Shown here in pieces: positions 10,613 to 29,657 of a DNA stretch of 64,000 nucleotides. Both the position numbers and the translations under genes were made by a program. A model generated the notes under the pieces. It was not told where the DNA came from. It made no database searches and saw nothing but the letters and a program-made list of their open reading frames with translations. The stretch lies in assembly GCA_025454875.1 (NCBI GenBank), contig JALONP010000008.1, positions 38,616-102,615 of the forward strand. The letters are read 5' to 3'. The DNA comes from Bacteroidia bacterium (GTDB lineage: Bacteria > Bacteroidota > Bacteroidia > UKL13-3). Numbering within the stretch: position 1 is the stretch's first letter; the number at the start of each line of letters is the position of its first letter.

Positions 10613-10689
10613 ATGGGTTAGGATTACATAGTTAAGTAAATTTATATGTATATCAAAGTAAAAATAATTCTTATCCTACCTCATCTATT

Positions 10690-11050
10690 CTTGGGGCTGG
10701 CCGCCCCAAACCGCCTCACTTTTTTTCTGTGAAAGAAGAAGTAAGCGCAACCTTCATGATACAGATACTTTTGTTACAAACTACATCATTTATTTCCCCC
10801 GCAACCCAAGCCACTTCGTTCGTGGGTTGCTTATCTAAGGCCACCGCTAAAATAAACGCTTTGTTTGTCACACAAAACAATCTAAGGCAAAGGAAGTGGT
10901 TAGGATTATTTTTTTTCGAGAGACAAAGTGCCGTTCCGATAGCTATCGGAATCCACCAATTGAGCGAAATCAACCCAAATTGGCCTAAGTAGCATTGGGC
11001 ATAGCATATAATGAGGGTTGATTTGGAATTGGTGGTCTGCTTTAAAAGGT
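10690..11050. repeat. Copy A of a ~360-bp structured non-coding repeat, in inverted orientation relative to copy B at 14465-14835.
   Basis: About 90% identical to the reverse complement of 14465-14835, with a near-identical ~170-bp core. Has a terminal GGGGC-TGGCC-GCCCC hairpin and a long imperfect inner hairpin (CCACCAATTCCAAATCAACCC ... GGGTTGATTTCGCTCAATTGGTGG). The ORFs across it are not conserved as proteins. Confidence 0.6.
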
Positions 11051-14464: not shown

Positions 14465-14835
14465 GTAACGCCAAAAGCAGACCACCAATTCCAAATCAAC
14501 CCTCATTACATGCTATGCCCAACGCCACTCAGGCCAATTCGGGTTGATTTCGCTCAATTGGTGGACCCCAACCGCACTTTGTCTATCAAAAGAAATAATC
14601 CGAACTAGAACCTTTGCCTTAGATGGTTTTGTGTAACAAACAAAGCGTTTATTTTAGCGGTGGCCTTCGATAAGCAACCCACGAACGAAGTGGCTTGGGT
14701 TGCGGGGGAAATAAATGATGTAGTTTGTAACAAAAGCATCGGTAGCATGAAGGTTGCGCTTACTTTTTCTTTCCCAGAGAAAAAGTAAGGCGGGTTTGGG
14801 GCGGCCAGCCCCAAGAGAACATCAAATACGGTATA
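14465..14835. repeat. Copy B of the ~360-bp structured non-coding repeat (inverted relative to copy A).
   Basis: Same conserved core and terminal GGGGCGGCCAGCCCC hairpin as copy A. Its inner end has a perfect 10-bp palindrome GTTACCTTTT...AAAAGGTAAC (14441-14470). Confidence 0.6.
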
Positions 14836-16800: not shown

Positions 16801-19014
16801 ATGAACCACGTTCCACACCTTATTTCTGATTTGGCGCTCATTTTATTGGCGGCTGCGTTTGTAACCTTACTGTTTAAATGGCTTAAGCAGCCGGTAGTGC
16901 TAGGTTATATTATTGCCGGATTGTTAGTGAGTCCGAACTTTACCTTGTTTCCAAGTGTGACCGAACTCAAAAGCATTCAGATTTGGGCCGAGATTGGTGT
17001 TATTTTTATGCTGTTCAGCTTGGGCTTGGAGTTTAGTTTTAAAAAACTACTTAAGGTTGGCAGCACAGCAACCATTACAGGTTTGTTCGAAATTACCTGT
17101 ATGTTGTTACTGGGTTTTGGGGTTGGCCAAGCATTGGCATGGAGCAAAATAGACAGCCTTTTTTTAGGAGGCATCATTGCCATTTCATCTACAACCATCA
17201 TCTTCAGAGCGTTTGACGAACTCAATATCAAAACCAACAAATTTGCAAGTTTGGTAATTGGCGTTTTGGTAATAGAAGACCTTGTTGCAGTATTGTTGTT
17301 GGTGCTTTTGTCAACAGTGGCGGTTAGTCCAACTGTTGAGGGTAGTGAGTTGGTAGGTTCTATTGTAAAGCTGCTTTTCTTTTTGGTGTTGTGGTTTATT
17401 TCAGGAATCTTTTTGTTGCCTACTTTCCTAAAAAAGGCAAGCAGGCTCATGAGTGACGAAACAACCTTAATTGTTGCAATTGGTTTGTGTTTAGGAATGG
17501 TATTGCTTGCAGCGGGTGTTGGTTTTTCAGCAGCATTAGGCGCCTTTATTATGGGCAGCTTGCTTGCCGAAACAACACATGCCGAACGCATTGAGCATGT
17601 ATTTAAACCAGTAAAAGATTTATTCGGGGCCATCTTCTTTGTATCGGTTGGAATGCTCATTAACCCCGAGGTGCTTTATGCCCATATTGGTCCTGTGCTT
17701 GCCATTACATTGGCTGTGGTTTTGGGTAAATTATTGTTTGTTACCATTGGCGCTTTGTTAAGTGGCCAACCTTTAAACCACGCCATACAAGCAGGAACAA
17801 GCATGGCCCAAATTGGCGAATTCTCTTTTATCATTGCTACCCTCGGACTTACCTTGGGTGTTACAGGTTCGTTTTTGTACCCCATCGCAGTTGGTGTTTC
17901 TGTAATTACCACTTTTGCTACACCGTACATGATTAAACTTGCCGATCCTCTTTACAACTGGCTGGTTAAACATTTACCGCAAAGGTGGACCAACTCCTTA
18001 AACCGCTACAGTGCAGGAACCCAACAAATAAAAGCTGAATCGGATTGGAAAGTGGTGTTCACTGCATTTACCCAAGTAATGGTTATAAACAGTGTGCTCA
18101 TTGTTGCCATCATTCTCATTTTTAAAAATGTGATTGAACCCGTATTTTGGATATCGGGGTCGGTTGGCAGTTTTGTAGTTGCCTTGTTAGCACTAGCAGC
18201 CATATCACCTTTTTGGTGGATGCTCACAGCTAAAAAAATCAATAAGCCCTCGTATACCCAATTGTGGCTTAACAAAAACAACCGAGGCCCCATTATCATG
18301 CTCGAAATTTTGCGCGTAAGCATTGGCATCATTCTCATTGGGGTATTGTTTGTACAGTTTTTTTCAACGGCCATTGCGTTTAGTCTTGCTGCAGGCATTA
18401 TGCTCATTGTTGGTTTTGTGTTTTCGCGCAAGCTGCATGCTTTTACCTTGCGCATCGAAAAACGTTTTTACCACAATTTGTATTTGCGCGAGTCGATGCA
18501 ACCCAAATCGGTGGTGTCGCATTTATTGCCTTGGGATGCACATTTGGCTTATGTAGATATTGAACCCAACTCTGATTGGCTTGGCAAACCTTTAGGTGCC
18601 TTGCAACTGCGCGAGCAATACGGTATTAATATTGCCATGATAGAGCGCGGAAACCAAACCTTGATGGTTCCAGGAAAAACGGAGCGCTTGTATCCGTACG
18701 ACCGCATTGCCTTAATTGGAACCGATGAACAAATTACCCAGTTTAAAGAAGCCCTGGCTGCAACTGCAGTGCCTCAAACCCAAACGCTTGCTGTTTCGGC
18801 AGTGGCATTGGTGCAGTTTAAAGTAAATCCGGGTTTTGTGTACTTGGGTAAAAGCATACGCGAAAGTGCCCTACGCGAACGGTCGCAAGGATTGGTTGTG
18901 GGCATTGAGCGCAACGGACAGCGGTATTTAAACCCCGAATCTACTTGGGTATTTGAGTTGGATGATGTGGTGTGGATTGTGGGCGATGAATCTAAAATAA
19001 AAGCGCTGTACTAA
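16801..19014 (+). CDS. CPA2-family monovalent cation:proton antiporter with C-terminal RCK/TrkA-C domains.
   Basis: About 12 TM helices, then two soluble TrkA-C-like domains; 737 aa. Confidence 0.75.
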   Translation: MNHVPHLISDLALILLAAAFVTLLFKWLKQPVVLGYIIAGLLVSPNFTLFPSVTELKSIQIWAEIGVIFMLFSLGLEFSFKKLLKVGSTATITGLFEITCMLLLGFGVGQALAWSKIDSLFLGGIIAISSTTIIFRAFDELNIKTNKFASLVIGVLVIEDLVAVLLLVLLSTVAVSPTVEGSELVGSIVKLLFFLVLWFISGIFLLPTFLKKASRLMSDETTLIVAIGLCLGMVLLAAGVGFSAALGAFIMGSLLAETTHAERIEHVFKPVKDLFGAIFFVSVGMLINPEVLYAHIGPVLAITLAVVLGKLLFVTIGALLSGQPLNHAIQAGTSMAQIGEFSFIIATLGLTLGVTGSFLYPIAVGVSVITTFATPYMIKLADPLYNWLVKHLPQRWTNSLNRYSAGTQQIKAESDWKVVFTAFTQVMVINSVLIVAIILIFKNVIEPVFWISGSVGSFVVALLALAAISPFWWMLTAKKINKPSYTQLWLNKNNRGPIIMLEILRVSIGIILIGVLFVQFFSTAIAFSLAAGIMLIVGFVFSRKLHAFTLRIEKRFYHNLYLRESMQPKSVVSHLLPWDAHLAYVDIEPNSDWLGKPLGALQLREQYGINIAMIERGNQTLMVPGKTERLYPYDRIALIGTDEQITQFKEALAATAVPQTQTLAVSAVALVQFKVNPGFVYLGKSIRESALRERSQGLVVGIERNGQRYLNPESTWVFELDDVVWIVGDESKIKALY

Positions 19015-19838
19015 ACACGGTAAATGCCATCGGGAGCGAGGCGAACCTGCTTGTTTTTGTAAAGCATGCCTATGGTCATCTTAAAGGTTTTTTTGCTCAT
19101 GCCAAATACTTGGTATATGGTTTCGGCATCGGTTTTATCGTGGTAAGGTAAAAAGCCATTTGCTTTTTCGAGCGCGTTTACAATTTTATCAGCTTCGGTT
19201 TCGGTGCGTTTGTAACCTGGCTTGCCCAACATCAAATCTATTTTGTGATCGTCTTTTATCTTTTTCACAAACGCAGTGAACTGCTCCCCTATTTCCAATT
19301 TTTTAAATACCTCATTGTAATGCAAAAGGCCAAGGTGTTTGGTATTGATGATGCACAAATAACCCAAATCTGTTTTGCGTAATACCATTGCCTTTACCAC
19401 TTCCAACTCTTTTACGGTAAGTGTTTCGTTCGAAAAATCATCATCAATTAACTCGGTTGCCGCAATGCGGTCGCTAAGCAAATCGTGTATGATTTTAACA
19501 ACCACGGTATCGCCCACTTCAGTATCAAACAATTGTTGGGGCAAGGGCAAAAACAAATCTTTTTTTAAACCCCAATCTAAAAATGCACCATCTTGGTTCA
19601 CTTCGCGTACTGTTAAGGCAACATAATCGCCCACTTGACCCTTGGGTTTAAGGGTGGTTACCGTACGTTGGCGGTTGGCATCGAGGTATACAAATACTTG
19701 CACATAACTGCCCACTTCGGTTTTGGGAGGGGCAAATTTTTGGTCAATGAGCACACCATCGGCACCATCATCGAGCATCAAATGCATTTTGGTTTTACCA
19801 ATAACTTTGAGGTTGTGAAATTTACCGAGTGCCAACAT
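19011..19838 (-). CDS. S1 RNA-binding domain protein (CvfB/YitL family).
   Basis: Tandem S1-like domains plus a C-terminal winged-helix-like region, about 275 aa as in CvfB. Confidence 0.6.
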   Translation of the reverse strand: MLALGKFHNLKVIGKTKMHLMLDDGADGVLIDQKFAPPKTEVGSYVQVFVYLDANRQRTVTTLKPKGQVGDYVALTVREVNQDGAFLDWGLKKDLFLPLPQQLFDTEVGDTVVVKIIHDLLSDRIAATELIDDDFSNETLTVKELEVVKAMVLRKTDLGYLCIINTKHLGLLHYNEVFKKLEIGEQFTAFVKKIKDDHKIDLMLGKPGYKRTETEADKIVNALEKANGFLPYHDKTDAETIYQVFGMSKKTFKMTIGMLYKNKQVRLAPDGIYRV

Positions 19839-20001
19839 ATTAACTAAAGTGAAGGCGCAATATTACGGAAACAAAAGGAGGATACCGCGGGGGTGGAGGT
19901 ACGGAATGCGACTAACATGAAGTAAAATCGGCTATAGTTTCTGATAATTTGCAAAATAATCACTCTCCAATTCATGGTAAAGTGCCTTAGCTGCTGCATT
20001 G

Positions 20002-20183
20002 TTATTTTATAGATTGTTTAATCAAGCTCATGATATACTCTAGGTCTTTATCTGTATCCACCTGAATTTGATAATCACCATTACCCCAATGCCCCTTCTC
20101 TAAAACATCTTCTGCCAGCTGCTTAGGCAAGTCAAAAGTGAGTATATTGAAAAATAGTTTTTTGTTATTGCATAGCTTTTTAT
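20002..20183 (-). pseudogene. Start-less C-terminal gene fragment (...LEKGHWGNGDYQIQVDTDKDLEYIMSLIKQSIK*) immediately downstream of the DGQHR gene.
   Basis: Open frame of about 60 codons ending in TAA at ~20002, with no in-frame ATG/GTG/TTG start. It sits in the +2 frame relative to the DGQHR stop. The motif HWGNGDYxIxV...DLEY...LIKQS resembles a conserved C-terminal module of DUF5655-like proteins; this is from memory and unverified. Confidence 0.3.
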
Positions 20184-21707
20184 TTAAGCTTGTTCACTTT
20201 CATTCTGAGGTTGTCTTAGTTTATAATAAATTTCCAAACTTTCAATTAATGCATCTTTAAGCTGCAATCCATTGTTAAATCGAAGTTGTTGCCAGTGTCG
20301 AAGATTAAATCCTACACTTGCATCTGTTTTTGCATCTGGCTGATTACGCATTAGTAAAATAAAATTCTCTTGCTCATACCCCTTTGCTCTATTCAGCCCC
20401 ATTAAAAAGCCCACTTCATGATAAACATTTATGTTTTTTGTACTGAGATCAGCAATAAGCAACCCGGTATTATTAATCAATTCGAGTATTTCATCTGATA
20501 TGGTATAGGCATGGCCTTTATTCACCTCATCAATACGAATATGCTTTATTTTCAAATCAAGGTTGTGTCTACGGTTTGCCTCAGCTATTGCTTCCTCAAT
20601 GGCCTGCTTTACTTCTTTAGATGCTTCATCAAACTGCATAGAGATAAATACATTGCGTGACCGTGCCTTTAGAATTGTATCGTATACTACAATTAAGTCA
20701 TTGGCTGTAATATCAGCAATCGTGTAAATGTGGTTATAGAGTACCCAGTTTTTGAACGACTTCCTGAAATCACCATGCTGTAAGTTCAACTCGTAATAAA
20801 CAAATGCACTAAATAAAGCAGGGCTATTACATTCTTTCAAAACAGCATGTTGTTGATAGATTACATTGACATTATTAACAGCCTGCATTACTTTATTTAT
20901 TTCTGCATCATTGTTCTGGATAATCTTCTTTTGCAGCAATAACTTGAACAGTTCCAAAAGCACTGTACGCTTTATAATTACTTCTTCACCATTATCCTTC
21001 CATGTTTTGAACGATTCAGAAATTGCCTGTAATACTTCTAAATCAACTCTGTCCTTTACTTTTCTTGCAAAATAAAAATGAGGGCCAAAAGATGGATTAT
21101 TCTTTAATTTTTCATCAGTGAATATGTCTACTTCATCCAATATCAACCTTAAATTTTCTTCCGATGTAAGCGGTACAGACTTACTATTAATGTTATGGAA
21201 AATCACTCTTTTATACTCTTCACTTTGGGGTGTATCTGGAAAGAGAATTAAACAAAAGGGTGTCATATAATCATTAAACTCTGCCGCTTCAGGAGCTGCA
21301 CTCAGTCGGTGGTTTCCATCTATTCTGAAAAAAGGCTTATTTGTTTTCAACCAACCTTCTGGTATGTCAATAATTACTTTGTGTACCCCAGATTGAGTGG
21401 ATTTAATGCTAAAAGAATCCACATTCGATTTAAATGTTTTTCGGTCAAGAATATTCTTTAGCGGGTCAATGCCGGAAAGCCCTTTTGTAAAATCATATTT
21501 GAGGTTGTATGACAGTATTACCTCAGGAAAGAATAGATACTCTTTATCTTTTAAAAAGTTTACGATTGCTTCCCGTTGTTCGTCAATTAAGTTACGCTGA
21601 TAGCTAAGATCAGCTTCAGAACTTCTTGCTAAATCACCCATTGGGGCAAAGCCCCGAACGCAGGTGAAACCGCCTAAGGATTGTGATAATATGCCTTCTA
21701 ATCTCAT
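20184..21707 (-). CDS. DndB-like DGQHR-domain (ParB/Srx-fold) protein fused to a C-terminal nucleoside-2-deoxyribosyltransferase/SLOG-like Rossmann domain.
   Basis: The N-terminus matches the DGQHR family pattern: QRNLIDEQREAIVNFL...FFPEVILS, then FFRIDGNHRLSAA. The last ~150 aa follow the NDT-like pattern NVFISMQFDEASKE...LLIADLS..NINVYHEVGFLMGL. Confidence 0.6.
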   Translation of the reverse strand: MRLEGILSQSLGGFTCVRGFAPMGDLARSSEADLSYQRNLIDEQREAIVNFLKDKEYLFFPEVILSYNLKYDFTKGLSGIDPLKNILDRKTFKSNVDSFSIKSTQSGVHKVIIDIPEGWLKTNKPFFRIDGNHRLSAAPEAAEFNDYMTPFCLILFPDTPQSEEYKRVIFHNINSKSVPLTSEENLRLILDEVDIFTDEKLKNNPSFGPHFYFARKVKDRVDLEVLQAISESFKTWKDNGEEVIIKRTVLLELFKLLLQKKIIQNNDAEINKVMQAVNNVNVIYQQHAVLKECNSPALFSAFVYYELNLQHGDFRKSFKNWVLYNHIYTIADITANDLIVVYDTILKARSRNVFISMQFDEASKEVKQAIEEAIAEANRRHNLDLKIKHIRIDEVNKGHAYTISDEILELINNTGLLIADLSTKNINVYHEVGFLMGLNRAKGYEQENFILLMRNQPDAKTDASVGFNLRHWQQLRFNNGLQLKDALIESLEIYYKLRQPQNESEQA

Positions 21708-21712
21708 ACTTG

Positions 21713-22549
21713 CTATTTTATGATTTCACTCATTATTTCAAATTTCTCAAGCAATGTTTCTACAAACTGCTGCTTGGTAATGAAATACTTTTTGTATTTA
21801 CTTTCTAATGCTTTGCTGTAAGTAACATTAATGCGATAGTACTCTTTACCATTTGCCTTAACTGTTGTTGACATTTCAATAACTTTTGCCGAAGGCATAA
21901 ACAAAATGTGTTCGCCAATTTCAGCCTTATCAGGATCATAGGCGATGCCTACCAAATAAAAAGCATGATGTGCCCGGAAAGTGTTCTTGCCTATACTTAA
22001 AATAAGCTGGTCTGCTTTTTTTACCTGAAACCTTGATTTTACCTGTAAGTATATTGGGAGAAAAACTCCTTCTTTCAAGATAATTAAATCTATTCCCCTA
22101 GTATCTATGACAGGTCGGTACACATTTAATAACCCCTGGCTATTGAGCAAAATAATTTCTTTCACTCTGTCTTCAGCTATATTGCCTTTGGCCTGACTTG
22201 ACAAACCTGAAATATCTACGAGTGTTTCGTCTTCTTCTTCCTCCGCATCTTCAATTGATGGGGCAGCAGTCTTTGAAATAGTAATCAACTGCTGTGTTAC
22301 ATTTACTGACACTACATCACCCGGCTTTAATTTGTTACGCTTGTAAAATGTAGTAAGGCCAAATATGCGGTAATGATCTGCATTGTAATTTTTTGAAGCT
22401 ACTTGCTTCTCATCATAAAGTTTCACCTGCACCTGTGCAGTTTCATTAGGTAAGAGATCTCGTACCTGAGCCGGTACGTAAATAAACCCAAGACGGGTTT
22501 CTACCTCTATCAACTTTCGCTGGTATGTTATGGTTTGGGTATCTTTCAT
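21713..22549 (-). CDS. Small predicted nuclease: N-terminal B3-like (EcoRII-N/BfiI-like) DNA-binding pseudobarrel plus C-terminal PD-(D/E)xK nuclease core.
   Basis: N-terminal region LGFIYVPAQVRDLLP...YRIFGLTTFYKRNKLKPGDVVSV looks B3-like. C-terminal ...IDTRGIDLIIL...YLQVKSR fits a D-x(n)-(E/Q)xK core. The start overlaps the S-gene stop by ATGA. Confidence 0.5.
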   Translation of the reverse strand: MKDTQTITYQRKLIEVETRLGFIYVPAQVRDLLPNETAQVQVKLYDEKQVASKNYNADHYRIFGLTTFYKRNKLKPGDVVSVNVTQQLITISKTAAPSIEDAEEEEDETLVDISGLSSQAKGNIAEDRVKEIILLNSQGLLNVYRPVIDTRGIDLIILKEGVFLPIYLQVKSRFQVKKADQLILSIGKNTFRAHHAFYLVGIAYDPDKAEIGEHILFMPSAKVIEMSTTVKANGKEYYRINVTYSKALESKYKKYFITKQQFVETLLEKFEIMSEIIK

Positions 22550-23955
22550 GATGCTGTATTTAAAATCAGTTTTTCAATTTCCTTTTTGGCAGCTTCAAAA
22601 TCCATTTTCGCTTGTACCAAAAGTTGATGAGCTTCTTCTGTTCTCACTCTTACTTCCTTGGCAATCATTTGCTGAACCGATAGTGGTGGGGAAGGAATAA
22701 GTAAATGCTTTACATCATCCGGAGACAAATGCCCATTTGTAGCACCGGTTACATTACGTTTGATTTCAATTTGCGATGGTTTGCACCGTAAAAAAGCATA
22801 CACAAAATAAGGATCGAACTTGCTTTTATCGGTTAGAAACTTTACGATATCACCCCCTAAATAATATTTGCCAGGATATGACCAGTAACCCACCTTACCG
22901 ATAGTAGCTCCGGTGATTACTACCAAAATATCATCTTGCTTTAGTTCCTGATAAGCATTGAACACATCTTTTGCAGTTAATAGATTATCAAGGTCAATTG
23001 TGCCATCCATATTAATGGAGTTAATCTGCACAACTTTATTATCTCCTTCTTTTTCCTCCTGCTTTGGTAAATAGCCTTTCACTAAAAGGCCGGATAATAT
23101 TTGCTTCAGAAACACTGCACCATAATTCCCTTTTGCTATTGATTCCTTTACATCGTAGAAATAGGTTTTATTAAAAAATGGATCAAACCTATTACCCGAA
23201 ACTTTGGTAAAGGAGGTATTGAATGTTCGGTTTTCAATTGTATTTGCAGGTTCTGGTGGTAAGGAAATACCCAACTCATTCAAAAGGTAATCATCAATAC
23301 CATCTAACAGCTTTGCCGATTGATGTTCAGTAGACTTTCTTTGTATTCTTGCTTCAGTATAAAGTTTAGCAATTCGCTCTTGTTCATCAATTGGTGGTAC
23401 TGGGATTTTAAGAGCCCTTACTTCCTGTGCATTGACATTAGTCATTCCTGCTATTTGACGACTAACTGCATCAATTTGCATTCTGCCAATACTTGAGTTT
23501 ATAAAAAATGAAACATATTCAGGTAGCAACTTTGAATTATCCAATTCTACTCGAATAAAGTATGAAGCAAAAACCCAATCGCCATCTTCATGAAAAACAG
23601 CACATTTACCAACAAGCTCCTTAGAGTTTGTTCTGTTGAAAAGAATATCTCCTTTTCTGACTTTGTAACGTTTAAATTCTATCTCATCAAACTGAATGTA
23701 TTTCAAATCGTTTAATCTCCATTCCTCATCTTGCAGGTTTAGCATCCGAAGCATCGGATAGCCTCCATTTTCTTTGCTTGCAAGCGAAGAAGAGCCATAT
23801 TGTAGGCGTAAAATTGCTTTGCCTAAACGCTCAATCTTGTAAGGCGATTTCTCAATGGTTTTTAGAAACTTCTCATAAAGTAAATGGTAATTGGGATCCC
23901 ATCTAATAATTCCAAGCTCGCCCCGATTAAGTAAGAAATACTTATCTACACTCAA
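22546..23955 (-). CDS. hsdS: Restriction-modification specificity (S) subunit with two target-recognition domains.
   Basis: Two TRDs, each followed by a conserved helical spacer (IPVPPIDEQERIA / LIPSPPLSVQQMIA); 469 aa. Confidence 0.85.
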   Translation of the reverse strand: MSVDKYFLLNRGELGIIRWDPNYHLLYEKFLKTIEKSPYKIERLGKAILRLQYGSSSLASKENGGYPMLRMLNLQDEEWRLNDLKYIQFDEIEFKRYKVRKGDILFNRTNSKELVGKCAVFHEDGDWVFASYFIRVELDNSKLLPEYVSFFINSSIGRMQIDAVSRQIAGMTNVNAQEVRALKIPVPPIDEQERIAKLYTEARIQRKSTEHQSAKLLDGIDDYLLNELGISLPPEPANTIENRTFNTSFTKVSGNRFDPFFNKTYFYDVKESIAKGNYGAVFLKQILSGLLVKGYLPKQEEKEGDNKVVQINSINMDGTIDLDNLLTAKDVFNAYQELKQDDILVVITGATIGKVGYWSYPGKYYLGGDIVKFLTDKSKFDPYFVYAFLRCKPSQIEIKRNVTGATNGHLSPDDVKHLLIPSPPLSVQQMIAKEVRVRTEEAHQLLVQAKMDFEAAKKEIEKLILNTAS

Positions 23956-23963
23956 ATCGGGGC

Positions 23964-26171
23964 TTAGACGAAAAAACGATCTTGGCCTTGAATTACTTGC
24001 TCGATGAAAACCTTTAACTGGTCCGCAGCAGTTTCCAATTCATTAATGCCTGATTTTCTCCCGACAGCATCATAGCCAATATTCTCAGCAATCACCATCA
24101 GTATTGGGTAATTGGTTACTTCATCGGCTATTAGCTTCAGATATTCATCTTGCAGATTCTCTTTAATTTCATTTATCTGCTCATTGTACAATTGTGTGAT
24201 GTCGGCCTTCCATGCTTTAAACTCTTCCGTTTTCTCTGCTACTTTTTTACCCTTAGCACCCCATTGGGTGGGTGGAGCAGCTCCATCCAATACAGCAACA
24301 TTTTCGGCCAATTCCCAATTAATGGCATTGTAATCAAAACCCTTATGCTCTTTGAGTACCTGTTTCTTTTCTTCATCAAGCCTTTTTATTTCATCGGCAA
24401 ATTGCGGCTGAACAAATAAGCGGTCTTGCAGCTTTTCCTTTGCATCAATGATTTTTTTAGATTCCTTATCAGACAGCTTTCTCAAGAAGAGAACAGAACT
24501 TTTTACACCAGCACCATTTGCAGTGAAAGCGGTTTGGGGCAGAGATACAACCGCTACAATACGGTAGTGCTCTTCTATCCAATCTCTAACATATTGGGAA
24601 CTGCTATTGGTTAGTATTCCATCAGGAATTACTACCGCCAAAAAGCCGCCCGGCTTTAAAAATCTGTGGCATTGCTCAATAAACAACACCTCTGTACTTT
24701 GGCTGGTACGAGTACCCAGCGTGTAGTTACTTTTCTGGCGTTTATCAATCCAGTTTACATCGGTAATACCCAGTTTATAATTTTTGAGGTATGCCTGTTC
24801 AGTTTGCTTGATGCTGCTACCAAAAGGCGGATTGGTAATGATGAAGTCAAAATTATTTCGTTGAAAACCTTTGTTTCCAGTACGTTCAGCAATCACTTCA
24901 GGATCGTACAAACCATCAATCGCCACAACATTCGTATGACCATCATCGTGAATAATCATGTTCATTTTGGCGGTACGTGCTATGCCTTCAGAAATCTCTA
25001 TTCCATAGAGATTGTTTTCAGCAAAGTCGTGCCAGTATTTGTGGTGTTGTACAGAGCCCTTCTTGAAGTAACCTTCTTCTGCTTTTTTATCGGCTTGCTT
25101 TCTTACCTTATCCAATGCATAGAGCAAGAAACCACCAGAGCCGCAGGACGTATCTAATACAAGACTGTCATTTTCTATCGGCAATACCTTCACAATAAAA
25201 TCAACTACTTCCCGAGGAGTAAAATATTGACCAAAATCACCCCTGAAAAATGAACCAAGGAATGTTTCAAAAGCCCGGCCTTTGCTATCGAGGTCTGTAT
25301 CGTGCAGGTTAAGTTCTGCTAAATACCCAACTATTGTTTTTAGTTCATTTGCTGATAACCTGATTGGTTCTTTAAATACTTCGGGATCTTTCTTTTTGCC
25401 CTCCTCATATATTCCCTGAATACGTTTTAACAATTCATCGGGATGTTCACCAGTGTATTCCTGGAAGTCGTATGGCTGTCCTGATTTTCGGGGTTTACGT
25501 TCATCCCAAATTTTACAAAAGATGAGTTTATCAAGTTCGTCAAATGCTTCAGATGGATTACGCTTTCCACCAGCCCAAAGTGCCTGATGGGCTTGTTCAA
25601 AAACTTTGGTCAAATCGCTTTGCTCTACAATCTTTATATCCCTTGCAGGATTTCCAACTTCATCCCTACCACCCTTGTAAAACTTGGCAAGTGTAATGCC
25701 TGTTTGCCCAAATCTGGGAATATCAGCAATGATGTTTTGTACCCGTTCTAATGTCGGATAGTTTTTTACATCATAAGATTTTGTTTTAATGCCAGATGTT
25801 ATCTGAACGAAACGAGCACCCAAAGCAACAGCATTGCCAAAGCCTTGCTCAATTGCCTGATTGAACTCTGCTTCTGATATTTTTTGCTTTTTGCATTCTA
25901 TAACGATGTAAGGCTTCTTCTTTTCATCATCCTCAAAAACGACAATATCCGCCAAATCGCTTGGAGTTCTTTTGGGTACAATAAATTCCAAACTGATTCG
26001 CTGTGGTTTATACCCGTATTCGATTATCAAGGACAGATAAGTCTCTGCTCTCACTTGCTCTTCAGGGTCAGAGAAACGATACCGCTTGCCCTGTGCCTGA
26101 TAGATTATGTATTTGTCATCATCTTCAAACGAAACGTGACCGAGTTCAATGCCTTTACCTATTATATTCAT
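23964..26171 (-). CDS. N6-adenine DNA methyltransferase (gamma class, HsdM-like) with an N-terminal HsdR-N-like PD-(D/E)xK nuclease domain. Architecture is BcgI-A-like (Type IIB) or a Type I M subunit without a separate R.
   Basis: MTase motifs: motif I-like LVLDTSCGSGGFL and motif IV NPPFG. N-terminal ~190 aa match HSDR_N-like: ETYLSLIIEYGY...ADIVVFEDD...YIVIECKK (E...D...ExK). I chose the start at the internal Met (MNIIGKG) to avoid a 44-bp overlap with abiEii; the ORF could extend to 26225. Confidence 0.8.
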   Translation of the reverse strand: MNIIGKGIELGHVSFEDDDKYIIYQAQGKRYRFSDPEEQVRAETYLSLIIEYGYKPQRISLEFIVPKRTPSDLADIVVFEDDEKKKPYIVIECKKQKISEAEFNQAIEQGFGNAVALGARFVQITSGIKTKSYDVKNYPTLERVQNIIADIPRFGQTGITLAKFYKGGRDEVGNPARDIKIVEQSDLTKVFEQAHQALWAGGKRNPSEAFDELDKLIFCKIWDERKPRKSGQPYDFQEYTGEHPDELLKRIQGIYEEGKKKDPEVFKEPIRLSANELKTIVGYLAELNLHDTDLDSKGRAFETFLGSFFRGDFGQYFTPREVVDFIVKVLPIENDSLVLDTSCGSGGFLLYALDKVRKQADKKAEEGYFKKGSVQHHKYWHDFAENNLYGIEISEGIARTAKMNMIIHDDGHTNVVAIDGLYDPEVIAERTGNKGFQRNNFDFIITNPPFGSSIKQTEQAYLKNYKLGITDVNWIDKRQKSNYTLGTRTSQSTEVLFIEQCHRFLKPGGFLAVVIPDGILTNSSSQYVRDWIEEHYRIVAVVSLPQTAFTANGAGVKSSVLFLRKLSDKESKKIIDAKEKLQDRLFVQPQFADEIKRLDEEKKQVLKEHKGFDYNAINWELAENVAVLDGAAPPTQWGAKGKKVAEKTEEFKAWKADITQLYNEQINEIKENLQDEYLKLIADEVTNYPILMVIAENIGYDAVGRKSGINELETAADQLKVFIEQVIQGQDRFFV

Positions 26172-26181
26172 GCCGATATTT

Positions 26182-27012
26182 TTATTGTTTTTTGAATTCT
26201 TTAAAGTCAATGGAAGTTTCCTCAATTTTCTCCAGCAACTCCGTTCGCACTAATTCAAAAGCGGTTGCCTGGTCGTATTTTTCTGTTGGACGTATGAGGG
26301 CTGCTATGTCTCCTATAAATTCATCGTCCTGCATTTTGGCCTCCATGTTTTGCAGATAAACCTTTTGCGTAGGTGGTTCATCTACCACAAAATCCATGTA
26401 GGCATGATAGCATTGCAACAGGGCGTCTTTATCCATGCCTGGCACTTGCACCAGTGCCTTGTACATGTCGTATAAATCACGGCCTTTTCTGCGTTGGTAT
26501 AAGGCCCTGAGTTTTGTACCCAGCAGTTCTTCCAATTGGTAAGTGGTGATGTTGCAGGCACCGGTAAACCATGAGGAATTTACCTGAAAGGGAAATTGCT
26601 GGTAGCCCAATACAGTGAAATGTTCCCGGCAATTGGTTTCTACTTTGAGGCGGAGGTTTTGCACCGGAGGGAACTCAGATTCAAAACGGTAATGCAGGGT
26701 AAAATTGTTTTCTTTCTGCTTGCGGGCAGGGTCACCTAAAAAGGCCAGCCTCTCTCGTAAACGGTCCACCACAGGGCCGAATGGTTCTGCGGTGATTTGA
26801 ACCAAATCAATATCCTCAGAATATCTGGGTTGAGGCTGTAAATACAATTTGTGCAAAGCCGTCCCCCCTCTGAATGCTAAACTTGATGCTAACCATTCAT
26901 CTGAAAAGATTTCTACCAAGGAACGACAAATCACCAGGTCTTGCTCCACCTGTTCGTTGGTTTGCCAGGGTACCTGACTGGCCCATTCTGTTATGTATGC
27001 CTGTGGTATCAT
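26182..27012 (-). CDS. abiEii: AbiEii/AbiGii-family nucleotidyltransferase toxin (type IV TA / abortive infection).
   Basis: Signature FRGGTALHKLYL ... RYSEDIDL (DUF1814 nucleotidyltransferase motif). Confidence 0.85.
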   Translation of the reverse strand: MIPQAYITEWASQVPWQTNEQVEQDLVICRSLVEIFSDEWLASSLAFRGGTALHKLYLQPQPRYSEDIDLVQITAEPFGPVVDRLRERLAFLGDPARKQKENNFTLHYRFESEFPPVQNLRLKVETNCREHFTVLGYQQFPFQVNSSWFTGACNITTYQLEELLGTKLRALYQRRKGRDLYDMYKALVQVPGMDKDALLQCYHAYMDFVVDEPPTQKVYLQNMEAKMQDDEFIGDIAALIRPTEKYDQATAFELVRTELLEKIEETSIDFKEFKKQ

Positions 27013-27064
27013 TCGTCAAGTTATCTCGGTCATTTTTATTTTTTATTGGTCTCGATGAATCGAC

Positions 27065-27979
27065 CTATAGGTCGATTTCAATTGTAGTGTTTACGATTAC
27101 TTTCCATCTTTCGTCTGATGCAAAACCTTTGGCCGGAGCTGAGGCTTTCAGCGGTATCCGAAACAAAGGGGCATTGTTATTTTGTAAGGCCATGTATAAG
27201 GCGTTAGCCAGCGGCTGGTTGTCAAATATTTTATCCAACAGATAGCCCAAACGCTGCAAGGCAGTTACCGGAACATGCTGCAGCAGATTGGCATTAAATG
27301 CGTTGGGTTGAATACTTTCGGCTAATTCAGCCAAAACGGTGGCCACCCTGTTGATGCCACCTACCCGTTTGGCGTACTGTATCAGATCGGTGGCGGTTAA
27401 GGCAGGGTTTGAAATTTTTAAGTATCCGGTCTCGGTTTTCCGGGTGTCTAACAGTGTTGCAGGTATTTCCTTTTTGCTGATGTAGTTCAGCTTCAGCCCT
27501 TTTTTCTGCATAGGTCGCAGCACGGGAAAGCCGGTAACCACAAAAAACTCCTGTGGCTGCTGGTGCGATGCTCCATGATAGGCGGCTGCGTTTAGTAAAG
27601 CCAGGTAATAAGGCCGGTCTAATTCCTTCATAAACGCATCTAAAAACAAGGTGGGGGGAAGGATTCCCTTTGACCTGTATTGGGGCGGTATAATGAGGTA
27701 ATACCCTTTATGGATGGAAATGATCTGCTCTTTATCTACCAGCCTTTTCAAGGCGAACTTATTGGCCGTATCTGACTGCCCGGGAAAATCGGCACGGAAC
27801 TGGTGCAGGGCAAAAGCATATTTACCCTTTGCCAGCAGGTGGTTTACCCAATCTTCTGCACTCTTATATTGCCTTGAATCTTCCAAGAGAGTAATTTTTT
27901 GCGAAAGGTAGTGAAAACTACTACCTTTTGCAAATGTTTTCTCTTTATTTTTTGCTTTGCTTATCATATAGAGTAGCAA
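27065..27979 (-). CDS. abiEi: AbiEi-family antitoxin/transcriptional regulator.
   Basis: Immediately upstream of abiEii on the same strand. About 300 aa with an N-terminal wHTH-like and C-terminal AbiEi-like region. Confidence 0.65.
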   Translation of the reverse strand: MLLYMISKAKNKEKTFAKGSSFHYLSQKITLLEDSRQYKSAEDWVNHLLAKGKYAFALHQFRADFPGQSDTANKFALKRLVDKEQIISIHKGYYLIIPPQYRSKGILPPTLFLDAFMKELDRPYYLALLNAAAYHGASHQQPQEFFVVTGFPVLRPMQKKGLKLNYISKKEIPATLLDTRKTETGYLKISNPALTATDLIQYAKRVGGINRVATVLAELAESIQPNAFNANLLQHVPVTALQRLGYLLDKIFDNQPLANALYMALQNNNAPLFRIPLKASAPAKGFASDERWKVIVNTTIEIDL

Positions 27980-28280
27980 ACAAAGTCTATGAATAAACGT
28001 ATTTTAGCTAAGAACGGTAAAGGCCATTCGCAAATTGTAATTGCCCAAATCGATAGTCAATGTAGTTTAGTTATTGCTTGACTTTAGACACCATTTGGTA
28101 AAGCTATTGCTTGACTGAATTGGCAGAATAATACTAATATACATTTGCTATACAAACAAAAGAAGATAAGATGGTTGCGGTTTTCGGTAGTAGGCGCCTT
28201 TCAGCTTTTCCAAAGCCTTTGTTACTATTCATTTTTGTTGCTTAATCTATGGGCAACAAGAACTAAGAAAAGAAGGATAC

Positions 28281-29657
28281 TTACTTACCGATACAAAACT
28301 TACTAAAGATATTGCCCAACAAATCATCGGTGGTGATTTGCCCTGTGATTTCGCCCAGGTGGAAAATGGCTTTACGGATATCGAGCGCCAGTAACTCGCC
28401 ACTAAACCCATTCTGAATGGCATTAAGTACTTGCGTTAAGGCCTGATACGACAACTGAAACGACTCGTAATGCCGCGTATTGGTTACCACCAAGTTATTG
28501 CTGCTTTGGTTGTATGCAGTAAACTGTTGGAGCGCTTGCAGCAATTGCTCCATGCCTTGTTTATGCAATGATGAAATGGGAATAACCTGCTGCCCGTTTG
28601 CAGCTGCTGTGTTTCCTAAATCAATTTTATTGGCCACCAACAATAAGGTGTAATTGCCTTTAGGCAGTTGGGCCAACTCCTCGTTTAATTGGTTTTGGGT
28701 GGTATTGCTTGCATCAAACACGTACAGCACCAGTGCTGCTTTTTCAATGGCTTCGTACGTACGCTCAATGCCAATGGCCTCAATGGTATCGGCTCCTTTG
28801 CGTATACCTGCTGTATCAATTAACCTAAACACAATGCCATTCACCACAAAGGTTTCTTCGATGGTATCGCGTGTGGTGCCTGCAATATTGCTTACAATGG
28901 CGCGTTCCTCGTTTAACAATGCATTAAGCAAGGTAGATTTACCTGCATTGGGCTTACCTGCAATAACAGTAGGCACTCCATTTTTAACCACATTGCCGTA
29001 CTGAAACGATTGCAACAGCTGTTCTAACAATTGGTGTATTTGGGTTACCAATGCATGCAGTTCGGTTTTACTTGCAAAGGCAACATCTTCTTCGGCAAAA
29101 TCGAGTTCGAGTTCAATAAGCGAAGCAAAGTTAATCAGTTGCTCACGTAGGTGCTCAATTTGTTTAGAGTAACCGCCTCGCATCTGTTGCATGGCTGTTT
29201 GGTGTGCCGCTGCACTCTCGGCAGCAATTACATCGGCAACGGCTTCGGCTTGGGCCAAGTCCATTTTTTTGTTTAAAAATGCACGCAGGGTAAACTCGCC
29301 CGGCTTTGCCAAGCGCATTCCAGAGCGCACTAGCAACTCCAATACTTTTTGCAAAATATAGGTTGATCCGTGGCAACTAATTTCTACCGAATCTTCGCCC
29401 GTAAACGAAGTTGGGTTGCGAAACACACTCACCAATACTTCATCTAACAGAATATTGCCATCTTTAATTTTACCAAAATGAACCGTATGTGATGCGGCTG
29501 CTTCGAGGTTTTTGCCTGCAAACAATTGGTTAACGATGGCAATGGATTGTGGCCCACTGATGCGGATAACACCAATTGCTCCAACACCACTTGGGGTGGC
29601 CAGGGCGCAAATGGTATCCGACAAATCGGTATGAGGAAAATGGTTCATGCGCGGCAA
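28281..29657 (-). CDS. mnmE: tRNA modification GTPase MnmE (TrmE).
   Basis: G-domain motifs GKPNAGKSTLLNAL, DTAG; C-terminal CIGK. Confidence 0.95.
   Translation of the reverse strand: MPRMNHFPHTDLSDTICALATPSGVGAIGVIRISGPQSIAIVNQLFAGKNLEAAASHTVHFGKIKDGNILLDEVLVSVFRNPTSFTGEDSVEISCHGSTYILQKVLELLVRSGMRLAKPGEFTLRAFLNKKMDLAQAEAVADVIAAESAAAHQTAMQQMRGGYSKQIEHLREQLINFASLIELELDFAEEDVAFASKTELHALVTQIHQLLEQLLQSFQYGNVVKNGVPTVIAGKPNAGKSTLLNALLNEERAIVSNIAGTTRDTIEETFVVNGIVFRLIDTAGIRKGADTIEAIGIERTYEAIEKAALVLYVFDASNTTQNQLNEELAQLPKGNYTLLLVANKIDLGNTAAANGQQVIPISSLHKQGMEQLLQALQQFTAYNQSSNNLVVTNTRHYESFQLSYQALTQVLNAIQNGFSGELLALDIRKAIFHLGEITGQITTDDLLGNIFSKFCIGK

Follow-up and report, generated by a model that had tools for sequence, protein, structure and literature searches.

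Type IIB restriction-modification (R-M) systems such as BsaXI and BcgI have the composition (RM)2S, in which a single RM protein joins an N-terminal PD-(D/E)xK nuclease domain to a gamma-type N6-adenine methylase, a separate S subunit carries two recognition domains, and no helicase or translocase takes part. They cleave DNA to either side of a bipartite site with no need for ATP-driven translocation. R-M loci may also house further effectors, and PrrC (EcoprrI-PrrC), an anticodon nuclease, sits inside a Type Ic R-M locus. Proteins of the GmrSD, BrxU and SspE group combine a DUF262 ParB-like NTPase domain with an HNH nuclease domain and are tied to DNA-modification modules, and retron and Thoeris-type defence are known to use NDT-like and TIR effectors. 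The locus described here lies in a Bacteroidia bacterium (GTDB lineage UKL13-3; assembly GCA_025454875.1, contig JALONP010000008.1, positions 38,616 to 102,615 of the forward strand), in a stretch of 64,000 nucleotides that is referred to as the window and numbered from its first letter. In JGI metagenome data the window belongs to contig Ga0392395_0000018. Between a cvfB-like gene and mnmE the window carries a defence island made up of an AbiE pair followed by an operon of four genes, RM, S, g5 and g6. The island as such is ordinary, and its interest lies in three of these genes: RM–S–g6 is, with high confidence, a conserved, phylum-spanning module in which a BsaXI-like pair is joined by a third gene from a family that Pfam, NCBIfam and PADLOC 2.0 leave unnamed.

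A Conserved Three-Gene Module

The four genes of the operon are the following.

23964..26171, minus strand: RM subunit, a fusion of an N-terminal PD-(D/E)xK nuclease and an N6-adenine methyltransferase, BsaXI-like
22546..23955, minus strand: S (specificity) subunit with two target-recognition domains
21713..22549, minus strand: g5, 278 amino acids (aa), a B3-like DNA-binding domain and an I-Ssp6803I/Hjc-like PD-(D/E)xK nuclease
20184..21707, minus strand: g6, 507 aa, a ParB/DGQHR-like N-terminal domain, a helical middle part and a TIR/NDT-like C-terminal domain

The linkage of g6 to its neighbors was followed by scanning one genome per species, and the 80 loci retrieved with g6 span Bacteroidota, several classes of Proteobacteria, Firmicutes, Verrucomicrobiota, Planctomycetota, Thermotogota and others. 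Of these 80 loci, 76 have a recognizable S and 70 the RM fusion; where RM or S is missing, a contig end in most cases cuts the locus short. No further gene family is common to more than about a quarter of the loci. The start of g6 is overlapped for 4 bp by the upstream gene in 44 of 77 loci, and the gap is 5 bp or less in 64 of the same 77. Gene order may be permuted to RM–g6–S (L062 and L078), or RM and S may be fused (L039), with the same set of parts kept. The pairwise identities of RM and g6 are correlated (Pearson 0.78, Mantel p 0.001). It is because RM and S adjoin g6 across phyla, start overlaps are common and permuted orders preserve the set that the three genes are regarded as one module. 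An earlier note on this DNA, made from the sequence alone, had taken g5 and g6 for two orphan effectors; this description holds for g5, which roams freely (see g5 and the Variable Slot), and fails for g6, which is a partner of RM and S in the loci retrieved.

Relatives of g6 number more than 1,400 at 90% clustering and 569 representatives at 50%, nearly all of them 470-550 aa long and labelled 'hypothetical'. Neither g5 nor g6 has a match at curated thresholds in Pfam, NCBIfam or PADLOC, and both the RM–S–g6 combination and the architecture of g6 were not found in Pfam, NCBIfam, PADLOC 2.0 or solved structures. No published description of the three-gene module was found in the literature covered, namely open-access papers and bioRxiv, where absence is not proof. 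Assignment of all island genes to one known system by defence-finding tools would have spoken against the earlier note; PADLOC 2.0 names AbiE and 'Type I MTase/S' (methyltransferase and specificity subunit) and leaves g5 and g6 at noise level.

In a plasmid collection the single g6 match lies on the Leisingera thetidis plasmid pBMJM1_1 (L161 5891-8134), within a gene annotated 'N-6 DNA methylase' whose 3' end encodes residues 113-497 of a g6 homologue. The gene looks like the product of a deletion that fused an RM gene to g6, with the loss of S.

The RM–S Pair

The RM protein matches HSDR_N_2 (1e-14) and N6_Mtase (3e-37), and among solved structures it is closest to RM.BsaXI (8w0p; E 9e-35), with which residues 53-589 align from the nuclease domain through the methylase. 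The catalytic residues of BsaXI, which are conserved across Type IIB enzymes, are E73, D90, E105 and K107 (PMC11997821). These correspond to E56, D93, E110 and K112 of the window RM, and among 66 RM proteins from related loci E55/E56 is kept in 65 and both D93 and E110-x-K112 are kept in all 66. The S protein matches Methylase_S in two stretches and the PADLOC model Specificity_I at 2e-72. Neither the island nor the 10 kb to each side of it encodes a superfamily 2 (SF2) helicase or HsdR. As RM.BsaXI is the best solved relative, the catalytic E/D/ExK residues are conserved and a helicase is missing, RM and S are, as judged from their sequences, a new member of the BsaXI-like Type IIB architecture. 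The suggestion of the earlier note that the combination fits no canonical Type I, II, III or IV system is thereby overturned for this pair.

Two other assignments were rejected. A Type I R-M system is ruled out by the lack of an HsdR helicase/translocase-nuclease subunit, even though PADLOC labels the pair 'Type I MTase/S'. The methylation-associated defence system (MADS) has homologues of both proteins in MAD2 and MAD5, but RM scores 325 bits against the NCBIfam MAD2 cut-off of 720 and S scores 88 bits against the MAD5 cut-off of 400; with scores so far below the equivalog cut-offs, no other MADS gene present, and g5 and g6 matching no MADS model, membership in MADS is likewise ruled out.

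The pair differs from BsaXI in several respects. The RM protein is shorter (735-753 aa vs. 916 aa), the match to BsaXI stops at residue 589, and the C-terminal 'paddle' of BsaXI is not evident. Above all, g6 is constantly attached as a third gene, and none was found reported for BsaXI or BcgI. The RM open reading frame (ORF) of the window extends over 753 aa (23964-26225); one gene call starts RM at the ATG at 26171, which is likely the start. The RM–S fusion of L039 measures 951 aa.

The g6 Protein

The N-terminal part of g6 matches DGQHR (TIGR03187) at 7e-8, with 32.5 bits against a cut-off of 58.85. Across 14 members of the family, weak matches to GmrSD_N are found in seven (best 0.0065), to DndB in three and to DpdB in seven, the last two at E around 3e-3. 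These scores point to a relation with the DGQHR/DndB/DpdB ParB-like proteins at the level of the superfamily only. The dnd and dpd modification genes are not conserved near g6, and RM and S are its sole conserved neighbors in the 80 loci. Two invariant motifs, RIDGNHRLS and FHNIN-K--PLT-EE, mark the family.

The C-terminal domain is predicted to have a flavodoxin/TIR/NDT-like fold, with MilB and DNPH1 as the top Foldseek matches, and the PADLOC TIR effector model is weakly matched by 12 of the 14 members. Glutamate E431 is invariant within the motif N-x-N-V-Y-x-E-x-G and would occupy the position of the catalytic glutamate of NDT and TIR enzymes. Profile searches of g6 and g5 against the PDB gave no usable match.

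From the motifs and the structural model together, g6 appears to be laid out like GmrSD and SspE, with a TIR/NDT-like domain in place of the HNH nuclease. Features shared with GmrSD, BrxU and SspE include an N-terminal DGQ(H/Q)R ParB-like domain, the F-x-N-I-N...L motif, a helical linker, a C-terminal effector domain and the tie to a DNA-modification module. In contrast to these proteins, the C-terminal domain of g6 would be a TIR/NDT-like flavodoxin fold instead of DUF1524/HNH, the motif reads DGNHR, and all scores are below cut-off.

A distinct protein of 387 aa with an NDT-like N-terminal domain is encoded two genes downstream of g5 homologues in L146 (5588-6751) and also in L147 and L149; it matches PF05014 weakly and shares 33% identity with residues 391-454 of g6.

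g5 and the Variable Slot

The structural model of g5 (predicted local distance difference test, pLDDT, 80.5) has two domains, a B3-like pseudobarrel and a PD-(D/E)xK core that is closest to I-Ssp6803I. The residues E126, D154 and Q169-x-K171 are invariant, so that the motif departs from the canonical D...(D/E)xK in having Q169, not D/E, at the third position. A B3-like pseudobarrel is likewise joined to a nuclease domain in the restriction enzymes EcoRII, BfiI, NgoAVII and UbaLAI. Compared with these enzymes and with the nucleases of the I-Ssp6803I and DREN type, g5 has no sequence-level match, a different domain order and different partner genes. The I-Ssp6803I-like fold has also been reported for DREN, an effector in the SPARDA Argonaute system (bioRxiv 10.1101/2025.04.08.647717).

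Unlike g6, g5 is a roaming defence-island gene. An RM–S pair adjoins it in only about 4 of 80 metagenome loci found with g5, and most loci of the module are without it. Its neighbors include Type I, II and III R-M genes: among 99 g5-neighbor proteins are N4/N6 methylases (8), Dam-type methylases (4), Type III Res (5), Type I HsdR (4), HipA (3) and prokaryotic Argonaute (pAgo; 2), and an adjacent DNA methylase is seen for only about 14 of the 99. Directly upstream of prokaryotic Argonaute genes, g5 homologues are also found in L092 (8828-10909) and L093 (8869-10956).

In the module's Bacteroidota branch, the position between S and g6 is repeatedly taken by g5 (L001-L003 and L089), and relatives of g5 and g6 share contigs across both homologue lists. 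The contents of this slot vary, and may be a 144-aa protein (p144) with g5 (L002 and L003), a 159-aa protein with an 8xMP membrane protein (L021), a 222-aa protein (L026) or, in Roseivirga seohaensis, p144 with 8xMP and g5. In the last species (L166 1976-13069) nine co-directional, tightly spaced genes run in the order HTH–RM–S–p144–8xMP–g5–g6–pAgo (with a Piwi domain)–SF2 helicase, where HTH denotes a helix-turn-helix gene; this run suggests that a larger composite defence operon exists in some Bacteroidota.

The cvfB–mnmE Hotspot

The remaining features of the island and its borders are listed below.

19011-19838: CvfB-like flanking gene with S1_2 and CvfB_WH domains
28281-29657: mnmE flanking gene, its stop at 28281
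19895..28280, no strand assigned: variable interval of the cvfB–mnmE hotspot, bounded by the divergence from L163 after 19894 and by the mnmE stop at 28281
20181..27944, minus strand: six-gene block of 7.76 kb, mobile as one unit (blastn against L001)
27898..27934, no strand assigned: palindrome (16-bp stem) lying at the upstream end of the block, putative operator of AbiEi
27065..27979, minus strand: AbiEi antitoxin, its true start probably downstream of 27979
26182..27012, minus strand: AbiEii nucleotidyltransferase toxin
23301..23910, minus strand: first recognition domain of S, exchanged between the window and L001
20002..20139, minus strand: start-less gene remnant beyond the mobile block, known from its translation, with no family match

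According to the ORF calls, the gap between cvfB and mnmE holds six intact minus-strand ORFs and one gene remnant, much as the earlier note had described it (minus-strand genes with no housekeeping role and a start-less fragment, set between two housekeeping genes), and all six of its domain calls are borne out by domain matches. Its proposal that the distal genes form one tight operon agrees with the spacings calculated from the coordinates, which are 8 bp between RM and S, a 4-bp overlap of S and g5, and 5 bp between g5 and g6. AbiEii and RM are separated by 10 bp, provided that RM starts at 26171, and the AbiEi and AbiEii genes lie 52 bp apart.

The cvfB–mnmE gap is a defence hotspot without an integrase, and its cargo is swapped between near-identical strains. 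On a contig from another sample (L163) the CvfB protein is identical and the DNA is 99.1% identical over window positions 18806-19894, after which divergence is complete. The cargo found there in the opposite orientation consists of a different AbiE pair (AbiEii 28% identical) and a split MmeI-family enzyme. The idea of a variable defence island, put forward with a call for a presence/absence comparison in related genomes, is thus upheld by an interval that differs between strains of about 99% identity. The split MmeI-family enzyme (L163 2-2469) is encoded by two ORFs, the first with the N-terminal, helical and part of the methylase regions and the second with the rest of the methylase and the target-recognition domain, and the split stems either from a frameshift in a pseudogene or from faulty assembly.

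The cargo itself also moves. A metagenome-assembled genome of the Chitinophagaceae (L001) shares only window positions 20181-27944, at 92-94% identity (blastn); the flanks are unrelated, with HycI-like and TPR genes at one end of the shared stretch and a GH32 hydrolase at the other. The shared stretch starts just upstream of the AbiEi palindrome and stops right after the g6 stop codon, which shows that the 7.8-kb block from AbiE to g6 transfers as a unit. Within it only 23301-23910, the first recognition domain of S, is unaligned, and S is 61% identical between the two copies where the other five proteins are 94-96% identical. Cassettes that are almost the same except for one exchanged recognition domain typically indicate that an R-M system is being selected for new specificity. 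The third island-bearing contig (L165) shows 100% identity and derives from the same strain, so it adds no independent observation.

The AbiE pair at the head of the block is an ordinary member of this type IV toxin-antitoxin and abortive infection family, complete, with strong profile matches for AbiEi (Pfam AbiEi_1 4.6e-26; PADLOC 7e-100, matching from residue 40) and AbiEii (Pfam 1.2e-31; PADLOC 1.4e-115) and a palindrome upstream, and nothing notable sets it apart. None of the other 79 g6 loci carries an AbiE pair. The palindrome at 27898-27934 is near-perfect, conserved in L001, and falls within the AbiEi ORF, at its annotated 5' end; the AbiEi ORF of L001 is shorter than that of the window, and the true start of AbiEi is probably downstream of 27979. 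Since AbiEi autoregulates, the palindrome suggests itself, by analogy, as a candidate AbiEi operator.

The earlier note reported no integrase, transposase or transfer RNA (tRNA) at the borders, and none turned up in the scans made. The gene calls for 10 kb to each side of the island contain no integrase or transposase, a scan of 15-33 kb shows no tRNA and the island borders have no Rfam RNA, and a search for flanking repeats or attachment sites returned only short repeats at chance level. A scan for sigma-70 promoters and terminators gave fewer matches than shuffled sequence, the model being ill-suited to Bacteroidota promoters and hence uninformative. Base composition, which the earlier note had proposed as a check, deviates weakly: relative to 31 other long ORFs of the window, the GC content at third codon positions of RM, S, g5 and g6 is 0.2-1.5 standard deviations (SD) below the mean and shows no departure beyond 1.5 SD, whereas that of the AbiE pair is 2.0-2.4 SD above it. 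The block is thus a mosaic with no strong outlier, and composition is a weak marker of the island.

Beyond the block lies the remnant, an open frame without a start codon that ends at 20002 (its translation closing with ...HWGNGDYQIQVDTDKDLEYIMSLIKQSIK and the stop) and has no significant Pfam match. It contains the motif ...HWGNGD...EYIMSLIKQ..., and decayed relatives with an in-frame stop occur on two metagenome contigs (L083 5719-5844 and L085 4524-4649), where they sit just downstream of g5 homologues. Elsewhere in the window an element of about 350 bp occurs twice between genes (10689-11043 and 14474-14816), and the copies share 89% identity at a distance of 3.8 kb. One copy is flanked by the FTHFS gene and a 309-aa ORF, the other by serS and a desaturase gene, and Rfam has no match for either.

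Proposed Mechanism and Alternatives

The overall picture, in which the hotspot block combines AbiE with an operon whose core is RM–S–g6 and in which g6 serves as a second effector arm, is considered somewhat better than even. This estimate joins the high confidence in the three-gene module with a confidence clearly below even in the effector mechanism. An RM2S complex would methylate a bipartite host site and cut unmethylated DNA, as BsaXI does. The g6 protein would work with the RM–S complex, or be controlled by it, as the second effector arm. Its ParB-like domain may read the state of the DNA or of the RM complex, and its TIR/NDT-like domain is predicted to cleave an N-glycosidic bond in NAD+, nucleotides or DNA bases. 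The trigger may be the sensing of foreign DNA or a block of restriction. The g5 protein would be a separate, B3-guided nuclease, an effector added in the slot between S and g6, and AbiE would act as an addiction module that probably stabilizes the block. A parallel may be drawn with the anticodon nucleases PrrC and RloC, which share with g6 the fixing of an extra effector gene inside an R-M operon and provide a model for 'guard' logic. PrrC is an ABC-ATPase-like RNase to which g6 has no relation in sequence or fold, and the likeness is functional only, by analogy.

It is tentatively suggested that RM–S–g6 may represent a distinct defence class, in which a Type IIB-like complex would license a fusion of a ParB-like NTPase with a TIR/NDT N-glycosidase, marking would be wired to the destruction of NAD+ or nucleotides or to base excision, and the slot (g5, 8xMP, p144) would add effectors in Bacteroidota.

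Several observations weigh against a g6 arm coupled to RM–S. The Spearman correlation of RM and g6 identities is only 0.32. In L092 an RM that is 73% identical to the window RM occurs with S, 8xMP, g5 and pAgo and no g6; the link from RM to g6 is therefore not absolute from the RM side, and the linkage counts start from g6 only. For Type IIB restriction as such g6 is dispensable, since two genes suffice in BsaXI and BcgI. The model of g6 has a predicted template modeling (pTM) score of 0.52, with uncertain packing of the domains, and both the binding of g6 to RM–S and its enzyme activity are predictions.

Among the alternatives, the one that survives best, itself unlikely, casts g6 as a regulator in the manner of DndB or a controller protein, with a ParB-like domain that tunes methylation against restriction and a C-terminal domain that acts as a ligand-sensing, receiver-like module. 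The invariance of E431 and of the N-x-N-V-Y-x-E-x-G motif at the presumed position of the NDT/TIR catalytic glutamate argues for an enzyme instead, as do the matches of 12 of the 14 family members to the TIR effector model; moreover, the operon ends with g6, and a separate HTH gene is already present upstream at some loci.

It is improbable that the island is no more than independent systems side by side, namely AbiE, an R-M-like pair, and g5 and g6 as stand-alone effectors (e.g., Type IV-like). Defence genes do cluster without functional coupling, and g5 behaves in this way; Mrr or GmrSD genes are found just downstream of g6 at other loci, and AbiE is missing from all g6 loci but this one. 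For g6, such an arrangement is hard to reconcile with its position next to RM and S across phyla, with the start/stop overlap as the commonest junction and with permuted orders that keep the gene set, and no g6 encoded away from RM and S is seen in the loci retrieved.

More doubtful still is a dual-modification system in which g6 would install or remove a second DNA mark by base exchange, through DpdA/DpdB-like transglycosylation by an NDT-type domain. NDTs are transglycosylases, 7 of the 14 g6 members resemble DpdB, and the top Foldseek matches, MilB and DNPH1, act on 5-hydroxymethyl pyrimidine nucleotides. The DpdB matches are weak, however (E above 1e-3), and no genes for the synthesis of a modified base are conserved near the module, which has only three genes in common. 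Least probable is an RM fusion that is a methylase with a vestigial nuclease fold, leaving cleavage of DNA to g5 or g6, for although PADLOC applies the label 'Type I methyltransferase' and the operon has a dedicated nuclease gene in g5, the PD-(D/E)xK residues are kept in 65-66 of 66 RM proteins and g5 is lacking from most module loci.

Implications

The island is a clean example of an integrase-free hotspot whose cargo is exchanged between near-identical strains. As the g6 family is unnamed in Pfam, NCBIfam and PADLOC 2.0, current defence-finding pipelines call these loci a plain 'Type I' methylase with S and overlook the third gene. Cultured carriers of the module include Acinetobacter sp. 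ANC 4470, Novosphingobium mangrovi, Flavobacterium piscinae, Methylobacter tundripaludum and Roseivirga seohaensis, and they make it directly testable. If g6 works with RM–S, the module would be an R-M lineage with a built-in second effector of the TIR/NDT kind, and the oldest form of self/non-self marking would be linked to the NAD+- and nucleotide-targeting logic of newer defence systems.

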